64,000 nucleotides of DNA from an uncultured Chloroflexia bacterium (GTDB lineage: Bacteria > Chloroflexota > Limnocylindria > Limnocylindrales > CSP1-4), in NCBI GenBank assembly GCA_963828165.1, contig CAWHDR010000001.1:736001-800000 (forward strand), given 5' to 3'. Positions 8,225-15,871 of this stretch are shown one piece after another. The notes beneath the pieces are model-generated. The model saw only the letters and a program-made list of their open reading frames with translations. It did no database searches and had not been told where the DNA came from. Every line of letters starts with the position of its first letter. Position 1 is the first letter of the stretch. The position numbers and the translations under genes were made by a program.

Positions 8225-9274
8225 CGCGCCGCCCCGGGGGTCGTCGCCGCGGCCTGGGCCTGTCCGGCCTGCACCTCGACCGGGTTCAGGAACGGCATCT
8301 GGGCACGCAGGCGGCCGCCGACGCGCTCGATCAGGTGATCGTGGTCGGCCTGGCGCAGACGCTCGAACTCGTGCCGGCCGCTCTCGTTCTCCTCGATCCA
8401 GCGGTTCGCGAACGAGCCGTCCTGGATGTCCTTGAGCACGGCCTGCATCCGCTCGCGAACGCTCTCGTCGATGAGCCGCGGACCGGACACGTAGTCGCCG
8501 TACTCCGCGGTGTCGCTGACGCTGAAGCGCATGAAGTTGAGACCGCCGCGGTACATCAGGTCGACGATGAGCTTGAGCTCGTGCATCGTCTCGAAGTACG
8601 CGAGCTCCGGCTGGTAACCCGCCTCGACGAGCGTCTCGAACGCCATCTTCACCAGAGCCGACGTCCCGCCGCACAACACCGACTGCTCCCCGAAGAGGTC
8701 GGTCTCGGTCTCCTCGGCGAAGGTGGTCTCCAGCACGCCCGCGCGCGTCGAGCCGATCGCCCGGGCATAGGCCAGCACGCGGTCGCGCGCGGTGCCCGAC
8801 TGGTCGCGCTCGACGGCGAAGAGGGCCGGCACGCCACCGCCGGCCTGGTACACGGATCGCAGCAGGTGACCGGGTCCCTTTGGGGCGACCATCCCCACGT
8901 CGACGATGCCGGGCGGGTCGATCCGCCCGAATCGCAGGTTGAAGCCGTGGGCGAACATCAGGAGATGGCCGGCGCGAAGATGCGGGCCGATCTCGGCGTC
9001 ATAGACCGCCTTCTGCGACGGTGTCGGGCACGAGGATCATCACGACGTCCGCATCGCGCACGGCATCCGCGACGTCGCTGACCCGCAGACCGGCGTCCGA
9101 CGCGAGCGCCCGGCTCTTCGACCCCGGCGCCAGCCCGACGATGACGTCGACCCCGCTCTCGTGCAGATTCAGCGCATGGGCATGGCCCTGGCTGCCGTAC
9201 CCGATGATCGCGACCGTCTGTCCGGCGAGCGCCGAGGGGTCCGCGTCGTTGTCGTAGTACATCTTCGCCGTCAT
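8221..9274 (-). CDS. ilvC: ketol-acid reductoisomerase, +1 frameshift near 9016-9019 (probable sequencing error)
   Basis: [13 protein letters not shown] in ORF 8999..9274 and [20 protein letters not shown] in ORF 8221..8958; removing one base restores [17 protein letters not shown]. Confidence 0.9.
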
Positions 9275-9897
9275 CGCTTGATCGCCTCCTCGATGGACCC
9301 CGAACCCCTCGCCATCACGACGGCGCCGGTCCGGACCAACTCCTTGATGCCGTACGTCCGCACGAGCGACACGAACGTGTCGATCTCGGACTCGGTGCCG
9401 GTCACTTCCACGATGACCGAGCCATCGGCCAGGTCGACGACCCGGCCGCGCGAGAGCTCGACGAGCCGGAGCACCTCGTCGCGATTCGATTCGGTCGCCC
9501 GGATCTTCACGAATGCGAGCTCATGCTCCACGGTGGGGTCCGAGGTGACGTCCTGGACCTTGAGCACGTCGATCAGCCGGTAAAGCTGCTTGGCGGCCTG
9601 CTCGACCGCGACGTCGTCCCCGTGCAGGGTGATCGTCATGCGGCTCGTGTCCTCGCGGTCGGTCTTGCTGACGGCGAGGGAGTCGATGTTGAAGTTGCGA
9701 GCGCGCATGAGGCTCGACACGCGGTTGAGGACGCCCGGCCGGTTCATGACGATCGCCACGAGGACATGCCGACGCGTCTCGCCGCCACCTGGCAGCGAGC
9801 GCGGCGGCGGCGCTACGTGCGCCGGGGCGGGATGCGGCGCTTCGGCCGGGGTCGGCGTGGGACCGGGGCCCGTTCCGTTCGAGGTCGTGTCGGTCAT
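9271..9897 (-). CDS. ilvN: acetolactate synthase small (regulatory) subunit with Pro-rich N-extension
   Basis: [38 protein letters not shown]. Confidence 0.92.
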
Positions 9898-11756
9898 TCG
9901 TCCGCCCCGCCCCACTTCTCGATCAGGTCCGACAGGCCCTTGCCGGCCGGCATCATCGGGAAGACGTTCTGCTCCTCGGCGATCTCGAACCAGATCAGTG
10001 CGGGGCCGTCGACCGCCTGGGCGGCGCGGATGGCGTCATCGACCTCGGCCGGGGTGCGGGCGCGGAACGCCGGGATGCCGAACGCATCCGCGAGCTTCGC
10101 GAAGTCCGGCCCGGGCAGGTTCGCCGAGTGGTAGTTCCCGGCGTAGATGATCTCCTGCCACTGGCGGATCATCCCGAGCTTCTTGTTGTCGAGCAGGGCG
10201 ATCTTGACGGGGATGTCGTCGGCGACCAGCGTCATCAGCTCCTGGAACGTCATCTGGAATCCCCCGTCGCCGGTGATCGCCCAGGTCTCGCGATCCGGCC
10301 GCCCGAGCGCGGCACCCATGGCGGCCGGGACGGAGAAGCCCATCGTCCCGAGTCCACCGGAGCTCACGTGCGAGTTCGGGTTGCGGAAGCCCGTGTAGCG
10401 GGCGAGCCACATCTGGTTCTGCCCGACGTCGGCCACGTACGTCGCCTGGTGGTCGGTGAGCTCGCCGATCCGCTCGACGACGTAGTCGGCTGACAGCACG
10501 CCGTCGCGCCATGCACCCGAGCCGTGCCATGAGGACGCCTCGGCATCGCGTCGCCACTCGGCCAGCTGGTCGAGGTACTCGCGGCGCTCATCGGCGCTCG
10601 TCGCGGGCACCATCGGCGTCAGCGCCTGGAGCACGCGCTTCGCATCCCCGACGATCGGTACCTCGACCGCCACGTTCTTGCCGATCTCGGCGGGGTCGAT
10701 GTCGACGTGGATGATGCGGGCATACGGTGCGTAGGTGCGGACGTTGCCGGTGACCCGGTCGTCGAACCGCATGCCGATGGCGATCAGCAGGTCGGCGCTC
10801 TGGATGGCGCGGTTGACGTGCTTCCAGCCATGCATGCCCATGAAGCCGTAGGCGAGCGGGTGCGTCTCGTCCATCGCGCCGATCCCGAGCAGCGTCCAGG
10901 CCACGGGGATCGAGGTCCTCTCGGCGAAGATCCGCAGGTCGTCCCACGCCTCCGCGTGGAGGACGCCGTGGCCCGCCAGGATCACCGGCCGCTTCGCGTT
11001 CGCGATCTCGGTCGCCGCCGTCTTGAGCTGGCGGCCGTGGCCATCCAGGTTCGGACGGAAGCCCGGGAGGCCGGCGACGATCTCGTCCTCGGTCGGGTGC
11101 TCCGCGCGCGTCTCCTGCTGGAGCGCGTCCTTCGTGATGTCGATGTGGACCGGACCCGGGCGACCGGTCCGGGCGATGTGGAAGGCCTCCGCCACGACCC
11201 GCGGCAGCTCGTCGGCATCGCGCACGAGGTAGTTGTGCTTCGTCATCGGCAAGGTGATGCCGTTGATGTCGATCTCCTGGAACGCGTCCTTGCCGATGAG
11301 CGCGGATGGCACGTTGCCGGTGATCGCGACCATCGGCACCGAATCGAGCATCGCCGTCCCGATGCCCGTGACGAGGTTCGTGGCACCGGGGCCGGACGTG
11401 CCCATGCAGACACCGACGGACCCCGTGACCCGGGCGTACCCGTCGGCCGCGTGGGCGCCGCCCTGCTCGTGGCGGACCAGGATGTGGCGAAGCTCCGGGT
11501 AGTCGCCCAGGACGTCGTACAGCGGCAGGATCACGCCACCCGGGTAGCTGAAGAAGATGTCGACACCCTGGCGGAGGAGGGCCTCGCACAGGACATCCGC
11601 GCCGATGCGCGTCCGCTTCAGGTCGCGTGCCTCATGGAGCATGCCCTTCCGGGCGCGCTCGATCGCCGCCGCGCCCGCCGAGCCGTCGGCCGGCACGTGA
11701 CTGCGTCGGCCCGTGGCCGGACCCGGCGGTTTCGCGGGATCGGTCTTCATCGTCAT
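9894..11756 (-). CDS. ilvB: acetolactate synthase large subunit
   Basis: YPGG, RHEQGG, TSGPGATN, FQEID, GMRFDDRVTG, GDGGFQMT..EL, GMIRQWQ. Confidence 0.95.
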   Translation of the reverse strand: MTMKTDPAKPPGPATGRRSHVPADGSAGAAAIERARKGMLHEARDLKRTRIGADVLCEALLRQGVDIFFSYPGGVILPLYDVLGDYPELRHILVRHEQGGAHAADGYARVTGSVGVCMGTSGPGATNLVTGIGTAMLDSVPMVAITGNVPSALIGKDAFQEIDINGITLPMTKHNYLVRDADELPRVVAEAFHIARTGRPGPVHIDITKDALQQETRAEHPTEDEIVAGLPGFRPNLDGHGRQLKTAATEIANAKRPVILAGHGVLHAEAWDDLRIFAERTSIPVAWTLLGIGAMDETHPLAYGFMGMHGWKHVNRAIQSADLLIAIGMRFDDRVTGNVRTYAPYARIIHVDIDPAEIGKNVAVEVPIVGDAKRVLQALTPMVPATSADERREYLDQLAEWRRDAEASSWHGSGAWRDGVLSADYVVERIGELTDHQATYVADVGQNQMWLARYTGFRNPNSHVSSGGLGTMGFSVPAAMGAALGRPDRETWAITGDGGFQMTFQELMTLVADDIPVKIALLDNKKLGMIRQWQEIIYAGNYHSANLPGPDFAKLADAFGIPAFRARTPAEVDDAIRAAQAVDGPALIWFEIAEEQNVFPMMPAGKGLSDLIEKWGGADE

Positions 11757-11781
11757 GGAAGGTCCTCGTAGTGACGGACAT

Positions 11782-11811
11782 ACAAAAGACCCTCGCCTCC
11801 CGGCGAGGGTC
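11782..11811 (-). terminator. attenuator terminator hairpin of the ilv-leu leader
   Basis: Minus strand GACCCTCGCC-GGGA-GGCGAGGGTC followed by TTTTGT, about 25 nt before the ilvB start. Confidence 0.8.
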
Positions 11812-11841
11812 CCTTCGGGTGTTGCGTGGGTTCGTGGCGCC

Positions 11842-12021
11842 TTAGCGTCCGTTCCTCCGCATCCCTCCGTTCTCCCGCCGGGAGCCGGTAATGAGGCCAA
11901 GAAGGCCATCAAGCCCCAGAAGCGAGCGAAGAAGCGCGAGGATCGATACGTCGGAGAGCGGGTTCGGCTCGACGGGCACGTGGACGCGGCGACCGTCCGT
12001 CGTCATCACGACGGCGACCAT
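11842..12021 (-). CDS. ilv/leu operon leader peptide (start 12021 or 12006)
   Basis: MVAVVMTTDGRRVHVPVEPNPLSDVSILALLRSLLGLDGLLGLITG...; 9 Leu in an 18-codon run, 6 encoded by CTT; lies between promoter and terminator. Confidence 0.7.
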   Translation of the reverse strand: MVAVVMTTDGRRVHVPVEPNPLSDVSILALLRSLLGLDGLLGLITGSRRENGGMRRNGR

Positions 12022-12131: not shown

Positions 12132-12202
12132 CGCCCACCCGATGGTCCTGCGACGTGAAAGGCCGCCGGCGGTGCCGGCGGCCTGATCTGCCTGGTGCGC
12201 GA

Positions 12203-12250
12203 CTAGAACGTGGTGATGAGTTCCCAGCGGTGGCCGGCGTCGATGCTCAT
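12203..12250 (-). CDS. putative 15-aa micro-ORF MSIDAGHRWELITTF
   Basis: ATG overlaps the upstream peptide stop (TGATG), GGAG 7 nt upstream; repeats the AGxRW motif. Confidence 0.35.
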   Translation of the reverse strand: MSIDAGHRWELITTF

Positions 12251-12342
12251 CACCAGCTCCACCGCATGCCGGCTCCCACCGTGAGCGCCAGCGACGCGAG
12301 GACCGTAAGCGCCCACGAGAGGCGGGCCAGAGTGCTTTTCAC
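12250..12342 (-). CDS. 30-aa signal-peptide-like precursor MKSTLARLSWALTVLASLALTVGAGMRWSW
   Basis: GTG start with GAAGGGG RBS 7 nt upstream, double TGA stop, directly downstream of the riboswitch. Confidence 0.75.
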   Translation of the reverse strand: MKSTLARLSWALTVLASLALTVGAGMRWSW

Positions 12343-12378
12343 GATCGATCCCCTTCGAGCGAAGAGTGGATCACGCCG

Positions 12379-12455
12379 GATCGGCGGCCGGGCGGTCTCT
12401 TGCGAGATCCCTGGCTTTGCGTCCCCGCCTCGCGACGGGTTTGCCCTGAGCGATC
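12379..12455 (-). ncRNA. c-di-GMP-I (GEMM) riboswitch
   Basis: Minus strand GATCG-CTCAGGGCAAACCCGTC-GCGA-GGCGGGGACGCAAAGCC...GGCCGC-CGATC: canonical GGCAAAC/GGGACGCAAAGCC core, GNRA-capped P2, P1 GATCG/CGATC. Confidence 0.92.
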
Positions 12456-12606: not shown

Positions 12607-13170
12607 TCAGGCGCCGACGGGCGGCACTGCGGCGACCGTCGACGACCGATCCCAGGCGCGCATGGCCGTGACGATCACGACGGCGACACCGACGCCGATC
12701 AGGACGTCGCCGATGCTGAAGACGTTGGAGAACGGGACCCACGTCGGTAGCGCGAAGATGTCGGTCAGTGGGGCCAGCACGGGGTTCGGGACGATGGTGC
12801 TGTTGGAATAGGCCGTCGGATGCGCCGCGCCCAACGCGGTCAGGGCCGCCGGATCCGCCGGCATGTAGCCACCGTTCGCCACGATCGCGGCGAGATTGCT
12901 GATCGCACCAAGGGCCACGATCGGCATCCCGGTGATCGCGCGGTTGGCGAGGACGGCCGCGATGACCGCAGCGGTCGAGGCCACGTACAGAGGCGGCCCG
13001 AGACCACCGATCCGAGCGCTCACGGGCTCCGAGAAGAGGACGACCTGGGTGAGCAGCCCCGCGACGATGATCCACGACCACCGCAGCTGGAGGGCGGCCA
13101 GGCCGGATGGGCGCCCGCCGGCGGCGAAACCGATGACGAGCCCGATCAGGACGGCATAGAGGATGAACAA
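12607..13170 (-). CDS. DUF5317-family membrane protein
   Basis: GG....L..L.LRW, SNLAAIVANGGYMP, LTDIF, VFSIGDVLIGVG; several TM helices; TTG start. Confidence 0.8.
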   Translation of the reverse strand: MFILYAVLIGLVIGFAAGGRPSGLAALQLRWSWIIVAGLLTQVVLFSEPVSARIGGLGPPLYVASTAAVIAAVLANRAITGMPIVALGAISNLAAIVANGGYMPADPAALTALGAAHPTAYSNSTIVPNPVLAPLTDIFALPTWVPFSNVFSIGDVLIGVGVAVVIVTAMRAWDRSSTVAAVPPVGA

Positions 13171-13189: not shown

Positions 13190-15871
13190 TCAGCTGGCCA
13201 GGTGATCGATGGTCATGGTCGACGACGCGGATCGGATGCCCGCCGGGGGACGGTGCGACTCGCGCAGCGGCCGCTGGGCCATCAGCATCTCGGTCATGGC
13301 ATCGGCTTCCTGTGGCCTCGAGAAGAGGTACCCCTGGCCGTACTCGCAGCCGAGCTCGTGAAGCCGCCGATACTGCCCCGGTTCCTCGATGCCTTCCGCG
13401 ATGATGCTCAGCCCGAGCGTCCGGCCCAGCGCCACGATCGCGCCGGCGAATGCCCACTCCTCTTCGCTCTCCGCGGGCCCGATGAACTCACGAGCGATCT
13501 TGAGGATGTCGACCCGGAAGCGGCGCAGATACCCGAGCGATGAGTACCCGGTGCCGAAGTCGTCGATCGCGATCCGGACGCCCAGGTCGCGGATCGCCTC
13601 GAGGCGCGAGATCGTCGTGGTCGTGTCGTGGAACATCACGGTCTCGGTCATCTCGAGGACCAGCTGCCACGGCGTCAGCCCGCTCTCGTCGAGGATGGAC
13701 TTGAGGTCGCTGACGAAGGTGGGTTCCTGGAGCTGCTGTGCGGACAGGTTCACCGACATCGTCAGCGGCGGGTCGGCGGGCACGAGCCTGGACCATGCGG
13801 CGGCCTGGTGGCATGCCTCGGACAGGACCCAACGCCCGAGCGGCAGGATCATCCCGTTCTCCTCGGCGAGGTGGACGAACTCGCCGGGTCCGATCAGGCC
13901 GCGGACCGGATGGCGCCAGCGGACGAGGGCCTCCATGCCGGTGACCCCGGCGTTCGACAGCGCGACGATGGGCTGGTAGTAGACGGCGAGCTCGCCCTGG
14001 CCGAGGCTCCTGGAGAGCTCGGCGCTGAGTGCGTGCCGCTCCACGATCGCCGCATGCATCGTGGGCTCGAAGACGGATACGCGGTTCTTGCCGGAAGCCT
14101 TGGCCGTGTACATCGCGACGTCGGCGTTGCGCAGGAGCTCGTCGGCGCGCTCCGTGCCCAGCCGCGCCGCGGCGATGCCGATGCTCGCCCCGATGGTCGT
14201 GTCGTGACCGTCGATGGTGAACGCCACGCGCATCGCCTCGATGATCCGGTGGGCGACGGCCTCCGACTCGGACAGGCCCGGGTCGTCCTCGAGGAGGACC
14301 GCGAACTCGTCGCCGCCCAGGCGCGCGGCGACGTCCTCGGTACGCAGCACGGTCCGGAGGCGCGCCGCCACGTCGAACAGCAGGCGGTCGCCAGCGGCGT
14401 GCCCGAGCGTGTCGTTGACGACCTTGAAGTCGTCGAGGTCCAGGAACAGCACGACCGGCATCTTGTCCGTCGGGCGACTGATCCGGTCCACGACCTTCTC
14501 GAGGAACAGGGTCCGGTTCGGGAGACCGGTCAACGGATCGTGGTAGGCCTGATGACGGAGCTGCTCCTTGAGCCGCGACAGCTCGGCCAGGGACTGCTCG
14601 AGGTGACCGTTCTCCAGTGCGACCGCGGCCTGGTTGGCCAGGGTCTCCAGCAACCGGAGGTCGTCCTCGCTGAACATCGTGCCCTCGGTCAGGCGGTTGC
14701 TGATGATCAGCGAGCCGATCATCTCCGATTCGCCGCGGAGCGCGCTCACCATGTGCTGCGACACGCGCCCATCCGGGTCGCGGGTCTCTTCGAAGAACGG
14801 CGCGGTCGAGTCGGCGAGACGCTGATGGATCGGGTCCTCCACGTAGTCCCGGTCCGGGACCATCACGTCGGCCTCGCGTTCGTGCCAGGAGCGGGTCCGC
14901 AGGCCGGCCTCGCCGACGGTTCGCGGGTACAGGACGACCTCCGCGAGCTCAGCGCGGAACATCGTGCGGGCGTGGCTCAGCAGCGACACCAGCGTCGAAT
15001 CGATCTCCGGGGAGTGCTGCAGGATCCGCGACGACTGGTAGAGGAGCTCGAGGCGCTCGTGCTTCTCGCGCTCCGAGACGTACGCCTGATACGCCAGGAA
15101 GACCATCGCGACCGGCAGGATCAACAGCCAGAGCATGGCCGGGCTCAACCACAAGGCGGCGACGGCGAGGAGCGCCAGGCTCGTGTTCGCCAACGCCACC
15201 ATCAATCCGAACTGGATCATCTCGGGAAGCTTCCGGAACTGCGGGGCGCCGCCCGAGAGCGTGATGACCGTCGCGATGGTGACGGAGCTGATGATCGTCG
15301 CGGCGGACGTGGCGGCGAACGCCGCGAGCCACTCACGCAGGCCGGGCATCCCGTCGCGGGAGACGAGCGCGGACACGATGCTGTAGGAAACGACCGCGAT
15401 CAACCCGAAGTTCGCGAGGTTGAACGCCACCTTGATGGGGCGTTGTCCGGAGGCGAACAGCATCGCCGCGGCCGATCCCGTCAGGACGGCCAGGATGTAG
15501 TCGGGCGGCGACAGGAAGAACAGGCCGACGACGGCCGGGAACTCGCTCAGCGAGAACGAGTGCGTCTCGCGTCGGAAGTGGACCTCGACGACCTTCAGCT
15601 CCGCCGCGGCGAAGGCGATGGCGAGCAGCGGCCACGGGATCTGGATCGGGACTCGAGGCGCGGGGAGGCCGTGGAGCTGCGCGACGTAGACCGCCAGCGC
15701 GACGAGGATGAGCGTCGCGGTCAGGCCCCAGACGCGCACGACGGCCGGGATCGGGCTCCCGTCCGACTGCAGCCGTCGAGTGGCCGGTCGGTGGCGCAGG
15801 CGCTGCGCGAGTCGCGTCCGCAGGTACGTCGCCCGGCCTCGGTCCGTCAGTCCCCGGATCCGAGTCGACAA
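13190..15871 (-). CDS. membrane-bound diguanylate cyclase/phosphodiesterase (multi-TM sensor, GAF, GGDEF, EAL)
   Basis: [27 protein letters not shown]-site, [29 protein letters not shown]; TTG start after AAGAGGGG (the 1469-aa ORF is over-extended). Confidence 0.92.

Follow-up and report, generated by a model that had tools for sequence, protein, structure and literature searches.

DUF5317, a membrane protein family with an invariant aspartate pair, is genetically linked to micropeptide genes and a cyclic-di-GMP-type riboswitch

Lipoprotein signal peptidase II (LspA; MEROPS A8, PF01252; structures 5DIR and 6RYP) releases its product at a lipobox with a lipid-modified Cys. According to its published description, LspA has four helices and a beta-cradle, with the active site towards the outer surface, and the Staphylococcus aureus enzyme has 14 conserved residues and the catalytic dyad Asp118/Asp136 (PMC6952399). 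Here we examine a gene of the DUF5317 family in a window of 64,000 nucleotides of high-GC DNA from an uncultured Chloroflexia bacterium (assembly GCA_963828165.1, contig CAWHDR010000001.1, positions 736,001 to 800,000). A first-pass annotation of this DNA had proposed that DUF5317 is a divergent A8-like membrane aspartic peptidase acting on a neighbouring Cys-less precursor. We found that DUF5317, micropeptide genes, a cyclic-di-GMP (c-di-GMP)-type riboswitch and a GAF-GGDEF-EAL enzyme are tightly linked genetically, and that two aspartates of DUF5317 are conserved throughout the family. Our favoured but tentative reading is of DUF5317 as an outward-facing aspartyl peptidase dedicated to the micropeptides, or at least as a protein that binds them, either convergent with LspA or very distantly related to it. 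LspA has its beta-cradle between the first two of its four helices, whereas DUF5317 is predicted to have five helices and no cradle; in the peptides encoded next to DUF5317, the small residues are followed by Gly or Pro instead of a lipid-modified Cys.

Other described systems share parts of this arrangement. Eep/RseP-type proteases mature short hydrophobic pheromones (SHP, ComS and sex-pheromone precursors) in Firmicutes; as in our locus, the precursors of about 20-40 codons resemble bare signal peptides with conservation in the C-terminal few residues, and, as would be the case here, a membrane-embedded protease is required and there is a link to a sensor and to autoregulation. Those proteases, however, are zinc site-2 metalloproteases, and the receptors are RRNPP regulators of the cytoplasm; our locus instead has a membrane c-di-GMP enzyme as neighbour, a riboswitch as putative regulator and a secreted product that is hypothetical. 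The pairs MgrB-PhoQ, AcrZ-AcrB and CydX-CydAB likewise consist of a single-helix protein of about 30 residues, conserved in its helix, that is encoded beside a polytopic partner; the larger proteins of these pairs are not known to carry two invariant acidic residues in a motif like that of a peptidase, and in our case some of the second peptides are helix-less. Like the c-di-GMP-I riboswitches (RF01051 and its variant RF03167), the aptamer of this locus lies in the 5' leader of putative target genes and beside genes of c-di-GMP turnover, but the putative targets are two micropeptides of 30 and 15 codons. Finally, proteins that join DUF5317 to an MFS transporter would resemble the C39 peptidase-ABC exporters of double-glycine peptides in linking a leader-cutting domain to an exporter, an analogy in which the protease class, the transporter class and the leader type all differ.

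The aspartate pair of DUF5317 and its comparison with LspA

The predicted protein matches Pfam PF17248 (DUF5317) with an E value of 3e-27 and 95.9 bits (cut-off 25), residues 27-167 covering profile positions 2-151 of 151; an NCBIfam scan gave chance-level rows only (E >= 0.059). Of the 8,000 candidates that a word-indexed search scored, 2,801 are homologues at E <= 0.001. When the 50%-identity cluster representatives were scanned in full, 2,721 passed E <= 0.001, and 960 passed the stricter limit of E <= 1e-10. DUF5317 was found in 48 of 151 sampled Chloroflexota genomes and also, among 14 control genomes, in Thermus and Thermotoga, and neither DUF5317 nor PF17248 is named in any paper of the literature searched. 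The automatic names attached to the 120 close homologues listed include one "lipoprotein signal peptidase" and one "galactitol-specific PTS IIC", to which we gave no weight.

The first-pass annotation had pointed to the string LGAISNL in a transmembrane helix and to two Asp 18 residues apart, and this observation was confirmed: LGAISNL begins at residue 87 (G88 and N92), LTDIF at 135 (D137) and SIGDV at 152 (D155), with D137 and D155 separated by 18 residues. An alignment of 55 representatives of nearly full length, which share 33-57% identity with the query, shows no variation at N76, P104, L135, D137, S152, G154 and D155, and G19, L24, Q42, G88, N92, N99, G100, G101, M103, N123, L132, P142, P146, F151 and G161 are at least 90% conserved. 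We extended the tally to 321 DUF5317 domains from 317 proteins fetched, domain-fused forms (GGDEF, MFS) included, counting non-gap cells. D137 is Asp in 292/292 cells and D155 in 286/286, so that the conservation of both Asp, which had been put forward as a check of the peptidase idea, holds without exception in these 286-292 aligned domains. The surrounding motifs are equally strict: L135 is Leu in 293/293 cells, S152 Ser in 287/287 and G154 Gly in 286/286, with G88 being Gly in 306/308 and N92 Asn in 306/309. The conservation of the Asp pair and its motif is far beyond chance.

For comparison we collected 30 LspA domains from a 61-genome sample of the same phylum (genome G038 is in the tally, and its locus was excluded from the alignment); the genome of the window itself also carries an ordinary LspA (PF01252, E 5.4e-35). 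Residues D9, K13, N41, G43, F46, G90, N94, R98, V104, D106, F120, N121, A123 and D124 are invariant in these domains, which agrees with the 14 residues and the Asp118/Asp136 dyad of the S. aureus enzyme as given in PMC6952399. The 30 domains share the layout G-x-x-x-N...V-x-D...F-N-x-A-D with 18 residues between both Asp, and the LspA side of the comparison drawn by the first-pass annotation, with two catalytic Asp at a similar spacing, is sound. In DUF5317, G88 and N92 correspond to the G-x-x-x-N of the preceding LspA helix, L135 and D137 to the hydrophobic-x-D, and F151-S152-x-G154-D155 to F-N-x-A-D, at equal Asp spacing. The Asp and Lys of LspA helix 1, the Asn and Gly of the beta-cradle and the Asp-Arg of helix 3 have no counterpart. 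The conserved DUF5317 positions G19, L24, Q42, N76, N99, G100, G101, M103, P104 and N123 match none of them, and the third and fourth residues past N92 are Ala and Ile.

Several results, together with those on the peptides and the fusions given below, weigh against an LspA-like peptidase. Six of the 14 conserved LspA residues have no counterpart in DUF5317, and the five predicted helices of DUF5317 contrast with the four helices and beta-cradle of LspA. The distance from N92 to D137 is 45 residues against 12 in LspA, and the 33-residue insert between Asn and the first Asp has an N-G-G-x-M-P motif of its own, the extra loop also holding a conserved N-S motif. PF01252, the Pfam family of A8, is unmatched by this DUF5317 protein at E <= 1; at E <= 10, Pfam gives Peptidase_A8 in only 3 of the 55 members with a best E of 0.35, which makes it the commonest non-self family among them, yet not a significant one. 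Searches of all PDB sequences with phmmer and the DUF5317 family profile brought up no LspA at E <= 10. Comparison of the DUF5317 and LspA alignments by hhalign yielded probabilities of 1.1-2.2% and P values of 0.021-0.046: the full alignments paired an unrelated stretch at 2.1%, and the stretch noted by the first-pass annotation came to 1.1% (P 0.046). In favour of the resemblance, removal of the 29 loop columns 101-129 gave one collinear 70-column alignment (P 0.021, probability 2.2%) that sets G88, N92, D137 and D155 on the Gly, the Asn and both catalytic Asp of LspA. DUF5317 is not a member of family A8, and its likeness to LspA arose by convergence or reflects a relationship too distant for detection; the proposal of a divergent A8 member is not supported.

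Sub-threshold PF01252 matches in three other Chloroflexota genomes were considered as DUF5317 proteins and rejected, being LspA-like proteins of about 125 residues (L035:806-1378, L036:888-1262 and L037:967-1365, in G028, G016 and G040, respectively; 20.7-23.9 bits, just below the PF01252 cut-off). They keep D..K, G-N, T-D-W and T-N-V-A-D, their host genomes also have a normal LspA, and they may be a truncated A8 side branch.

An AlphaFold2 model of DUF5317 from the 55-sequence alignment (predicted local distance difference test score, pLDDT, 93.2; predicted template modelling score, pTM, 0.86) has helices at 2-16, 32-45, 48-74, 82-98 and 153-177 and, by DSSP, short strands at 103-105, 124-125, 137, 139-140 and 150-151 within the long 99-152 loop. 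D137 is part of a small beta-hairpin, in which 137 and 139-140 pair with 150-151. Since this hairpin runs into the last helix, which begins at 153, D137 would adjoin D155 in the predicted fold. A structural search against LspA, also suggested by the first-pass annotation, gave no significant match: Foldseek of model 1 against the PDB returned nothing at E <= 0.001, with LspA 5dir_C at rank 14 (E 6.7, TM scores 0.35/0.42) and 6ryp at rank 43/54. The LspA rank did not recur with a second DUF5317 model, and the fold match is no better than that of many unrelated helical bundles. The ESM Atlas, searched for look-alikes with PF17248 left out, provided no usable match. An ungapped alignment of the last helix, derived from the range ends, would place D155 on Asp136 of 6ryp and on residue 142 or 143 of 5dir, in which we take Asp143 to be the second catalytic residue, and a three-helix core common to DUF5317 and LspA is possible on these models.

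The orientation in the membrane was predicted from charges and fusions. Across the 55 sequences the mean number of Lys and Arg is 3.2 in loop 17-31, 0.5 in loop 46-56, 1.2 in loop 75-81 and 3.5 in the C-terminal tail, and the 54-residue loop 99-152 is net acidic (2.3 Lys and Arg vs 3.7 Asp and Glu). At the C-terminus, DUF5317 is followed by GAF-GGDEF in protein P0153 and by MFS in the third DUF5317 paralogue of this genome, and MFS-first fusions (e.g. P0164) begin DUF5317 at loop 1, without helix 1. The charge bias and the fusions place loop 1 and the C-terminus in the cytoplasm, and the Asp pair is thereby predicted to face outwards, as the LspA dyad does (PMC6952399). What stands of the LspA-like proposal is the invariant Asp pair, predicted to face outwards, at an LspA-like placement, the local motif and the linked tiny open reading frame (ORF); the A8 membership does not.

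The topology also bears on a relation of DUF5317 to the GxGD intramembrane aspartyl proteases (A22 presenilin/SPP and A24 prepilin peptidase), to which we give very little credence. The invariant S152-x-G154-D155 followed by hydrophobic residues resembles the GxGD motif, and prepilin peptidases cut after Gly in short leaders. The first motif position, however, is Ser in every one of the 287 cells and never Gly, and prepilin peptidase works on the cytoplasmic side of the membrane, opposite to the side predicted for the Asp pair.

Micropeptide genes and riboswitch linked to DUF5317

DUF5317 is the second gene of a conserved minus-strand cassette (Table 1), and the Cys-less precursor postulated next to it proved to be a real gene: a 30-codon ORF that is conserved, coding, signal-peptide-like and tied to DUF5317. 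Its GTG start lies 32 nucleotides past the riboswitch and is preceded by the Shine-Dalgarno sequence GAAGGGGA, and the encoded micropeptide 1 consists of a K/R-rich N-terminus, a hydrophobic helix and the tail G-A-G-M-R-W-S-W, without Cys. The ATG of micropeptide gene 2 overlaps the stop codon of gene 1 (TGATG). Among 45 micropeptide 1 sequences, L5, A16, A24 and W28 are invariant and K2, R7, A19, L20, G23, G25 and R27 at least 90% conserved, W28 being the only conserved Trp. The nucleotide entropy summed by codon position 1, 2 and 3 is 16.2, 9.3 and 26.1, and the conserved Ala is followed by Gly in 42/45 sequences, by Trp in 3/45 and by Cys in 0/45. In micropeptide 2 conservation is limited to the end, which reads [A/S]-G-[H/Q/R]-R-W with 0-3 further residues; the remainder varies from a form with basic residues and a helix down to about 9 residues without a helix. 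Most riboswitch loci have, after gene 1, a second ORF that carries [A/S]-G-[H/Q/R]-R-W close to its end, and the profiles of micropeptides 1 and 2 match each other. Judged from these sequences, the two micropeptides are real genes of one family.

The linkage was examined in related loci. With 16 closer sequences as the query, 596 pattern matches were obtained in species-representative genomes, 581 of which encode a relative, and the best 80 were kept. An Rfam scan of 11 relatives placed a riboswitch after DUF5317 in all 11 (10 RF03167 and 1 RF01051), and a covariance model built from those 11 riboswitches (R1) found one next to DUF5317 in 47 of the 80 loci. Micropeptide 1 was recognized by pattern in 45 of these 47 riboswitch loci, and a full-length GAF-GGDEF-EAL orthologue stands beside DUF5317 in 44 of them and in none of the other 33. 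The order of the parts is altered in L047, L052, L053, L074, L076 and L105, with the parts still together. Peptide-family ORFs, searched with both profiles (hmmsearch E <= 0.01), occur in 61/80 loci and always next to DUF5317, and none was found elsewhere in the same 80 loci (up to 12.5 kb). They lie 37-812 nucleotides after DUF5317 or 205-273 nucleotides before it; a single ORF stands at +1489, and a pair on the opposite strand is about 1.6 kb distant. A plain motif scan recovered peptide-type ends in 10/33 riboswitch-less loci as compared with 5/556 control windows. On the other side of the balance, 19/80 loci have no neighbouring peptide gene by profile or heuristic.

The R1 model matches 43/101 genomes of a class sample (genome G122 is in this tally only). 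Of 28 R1 loci examined, all 11 matches at >=81.7 bits have DUF5317 within 1.5 kb, and none of the 17 at <=74.4 bits does. In some relatives, riboswitch and micropeptide units are arranged in tandem after DUF5317 (L060 6699-6783 and 7243-7327; L081 6703-6800 and 7270-7365; L084 2596-2681 and 3858-3942). The genome of the window has a second, lower-scoring c-di-GMP-I-type aptamer outside the window (L119:1501-1586 (+) = G000:C1:703473-703558; 48.5 bits with R1), which lies upstream of a membrane-anchored protein with long Pro/Thr/Ala-rich repeats, with no DUF5317 or micropeptide nearby.

Beyond the class of the window, we examined 22 of 29 new loci, those from other Chloroflexota classes. In 11 of the 22, a small ORF with a basic N-terminus, a helix, the sequence ...[A/S]-G-A-[P/G] and a 4-10-residue tail is next to DUF5317, just upstream in 10 and downstream in 1. 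Their tails read G-A-P or G-A-G, and Arg is absent. The frequent Pro after G-A speaks against cleavage at this point, since Pro after the cut is generally disfavoured by signal peptidases. A twelfth candidate, a 72-codon ORF in L168, was dropped because it looks like part of a transporter gene.

The riboswitch matches Rfam RF03167 (c-di-GMP-I-GGC) over the full model 1-80 and, at 61.9 bits (E 3.2e-13), exceeds the gathering score of 59. In a single minimum-energy fold (z -1.74), the 5' strand of P1 pairs with the start-codon region and the Shine-Dalgarno sequence is in a local hairpin. In the article texts searched, c-di-GMP-I-GGC occurs in three papers and was met only as a name. To our knowledge, the ligand of the GGC variant of the c-di-GMP-I riboswitch is not established.

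In four soil metatranscriptome runs, each of a different study, RNA-library contigs with 90-100% identity to the window connect the riboswitch with the peptide genes: 12226-12431 (X15), 12192-12431 (X16), 12299-12431 (X17) and, without differences, 12328-12399 (X18). The coding region of DUF5317 is represented by one such contig (12820-12969, depth 4, X18). RNA libraries may hold DNA, and contigs of this kind show neither strand nor level nor absence.

Peptidase, non-catalytic partner or accessory module

These data suggest that DUF5317 is a dedicated membrane partner of tiny signal-peptide-like proteins. The two-aspartate protein would clip the micropeptides just past the membrane helix, at the small-residue motif [G/E]-A-G, in the mode of LspA on a lipoprotein signal peptide but with Cys-less and unlipidated substrates. 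The basic N-terminus and helix of the peptide would set G-A-G at the outer membrane face, near the predicted Asp pair. What we infer is a catalytic function of the Asp pair, its action on the micropeptides as substrate, the site of the cut and any role of the released G-x-R-W tail; cleavage around VGA|G with release of a Trp-rich peptide, which the first-pass annotation had envisaged, is pure conjecture.

A non-catalytic role is nearly as likely as that of a peptidase. The micropeptides would then be stable single-helix subunits or regulators with DUF5317 as their binding partner, and they would act on the GAF-GGDEF-EAL enzyme either by direct contact or by way of DUF5317, much as MgrB, AcrZ or CydX tune larger membrane proteins. 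The Asp pair would serve to bind, for example, the conserved Arg of the peptide or a cation, not for hydrolysis. Conservation in micropeptide 1 runs from end to end, takes in the helix residues A16, A19 and L20 and is not confined to the tail, as expected of a stable membrane subunit. Rosetta-stone fusions join DUF5317 to GAF-GGDEF-EAL (P0278, a GAF-GGDEF-EAL protein of 1053 residues with 11 member sequences) and, in P0153, to GAF-GGDEF, and homology to LspA went undetected by sequence methods. Structure prediction of DUF5317 with micropeptide 1 points the same way and lends weak support to a complex: it scored 0.36 as compared with 0.01 for the best of 3 controls, the runs agreeing in at least 92% of contacts with a partner pLDDT of at least 61. 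The mark used in calibration was reached by 58/80 solved complexes and 2/110 mismatched pairs, and at scores of 0.60 or under there were only 7/80 solved complexes and both passing mismatches, counts that hold only roughly here since custom alignments were used. Such a prediction fits binding as well as cutting. Some micropeptide 2 forms, however, have about 9 residues or no helix, yet keep the A-G-x-R-W end, and these forms cannot be membrane subunits. Arg is absent from the tails of the other classes while both Asp are invariant, and L-x-D and S-x-G-D vary in none of the domains examined, a degree of conservation more typical of a catalytic site.

The fusions of DUF5317 raise a further alternative. 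Among 48 longer homologues surveyed (E <= 1e-5), 32 carry MFS domains, 9 carry EAL, GGDEF or HD domains (one of these proteins being also counted under MFS), 1 carries DUF421 and 7 have DUF5317 only. Recurrent fusion to GAF-GGDEF, EAL, HD-GYP and MFS is typical of sensor or accessory membrane modules and counts against a peptidase. DUF5317 might serve c-di-GMP enzymes and MFS transporters as an accessory or input module in the membrane and sense or conduct something other than the peptides, such as a lipid, an ion or a small molecule, with the likeness to LspA due to chance and the peptides co-regulated without direct contact. The third DUF5317 paralogue of the genome, a DUF5317-MFS protein encoded behind an HD-GYP gene and a c-di-GMP-II riboswitch, fits this view, as do the 19 loci with no detectable peptide gene and the hhalign P values of merely 0.02-0.05. 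We nevertheless regard such a module as rather unlikely: peptide-family ORFs, where present in the searched loci, stand beside DUF5317 and nowhere else, and their ends are rare in the control windows, the riboswitch-less paralogue retains its own peptide gene, and small signal-peptide-like ORFs accompany DUF5317 in other classes too.

That riboswitch-less gene is the second DUF5317 paralogue of the genome. A 33-codon ORF ending in M-A-G-R-R-W-G-P follows it by about 100 nucleotides and is the second-best match of the peptide-1 profile over all open frames of the genome (E 0.12). In this region, just past the right end of the window (L003:859-1410 and 2307-2828; G000:C1), DUF5317 stands between a DinB_2 protein and a YetF/DUF421 membrane protein, and P0309 is an instance of a DUF421-DUF5317 fusion found elsewhere. 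The operon of the third paralogue, HD-GYP/DUF5317-MFS, is headed by a c-di-GMP-II riboswitch (RF01786, 60.6 bits; L178:5680-5763 (-), outside the window), and a heuristic search for small peptide genes behind that riboswitch gave nothing convincing. With the placements of RF03167 and RF01786, two of the three DUF5317 genes of the genome adjoin cyclic-di-GMP riboswitches of two classes.

The peptidase role of DUF5317 could be part of a larger circuit, although the complete scheme is distinctly improbable. The riboswitch would gate translation of the two micropeptides, DUF5317 would cut them after [G/E]-A, and the G-x-R-W tails would be released outside the cell. The GAF-GGDEF-EAL enzyme would sense these tails and alter c-di-GMP, closing an autoinduction loop. 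On this scheme DUF5317 would have reached the active-site layout of LspA independently, and its MFS-fused paralogues would be cut-and-export versions.

Features of the window and significance

The features of the cassette are collected in Table 1. In the GAF-GGDEF-EAL protein, Pfam domains are GAF_3 at 246-377, GGDEF at 398-553 and EAL at 574-809, and the first approximately 240 residues are multi-helix with no Pfam family. The hairpin after the peptide genes was missed by a consensus terminator scan because its T-run is short. An Rfam match to the Rothia-sucC motif that overlaps this hairpin (12146-12198 (-), 22.6 bits vs 64.5 gathering, E 0.59) was taken as chance. Past the hairpin, at 8999-11912 (-) of the window, large ORFs resemble ilvB, ilvN and ilvC, that is, the acetolactate synthase large and small subunits and ketol-acid reductoisomerase, as judged from their translations only.

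Table 1. Positions of the DUF5317 cassette and its elements in the window
Feature	Position	Strand	Description
Membrane GAF-GGDEF-EAL protein gene	13190..15739	-	about 849 residues, provisional start codon; stop 19 nucleotides before DUF5317 start
DUF5317 gene	12607..13170	-	187 residues, TTG start; five predicted transmembrane helices
G88-A-I-S-N92 codons	12895..12909	-	helix 4; putative counterpart of LspA G-x-x-x-N
D137 codon	12760..12762	-	L-x-D, predicted small beta-bridge of outer loop
D155 codon	12706..12708	-	F-S-x-G-D, predicted outer start of last helix
c-di-GMP-I-GGC riboswitch aptamer	12379..12454	-	about 150 nucleotides after DUF5317 stop codon
Micropeptide gene 1	12250..12342	-	30 codons, GTG start; ends ...L-T-V-G-A-G-M-R-W-S-W
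Micropeptide gene 2	12203..12250	-	15 codons; contains ...D-A-G-H-R-W
GC-rich hairpin then TTT	12158..12183	-	probable end of peptide transcript; read from sequence

DUF5317 is a widespread family without an assigned function. The parts of the cassette are short and easy to synthesise, so that direct testing is possible. If the Asp pair is catalytic, DUF5317 would be a new membrane aspartyl peptidase family with a genetically defined, very small substrate, and a convenient system for cleavage at the membrane surface. The cassette would also tie micropeptides directly to c-di-GMP signalling, through a riboswitch variant without an established ligand or regulon.

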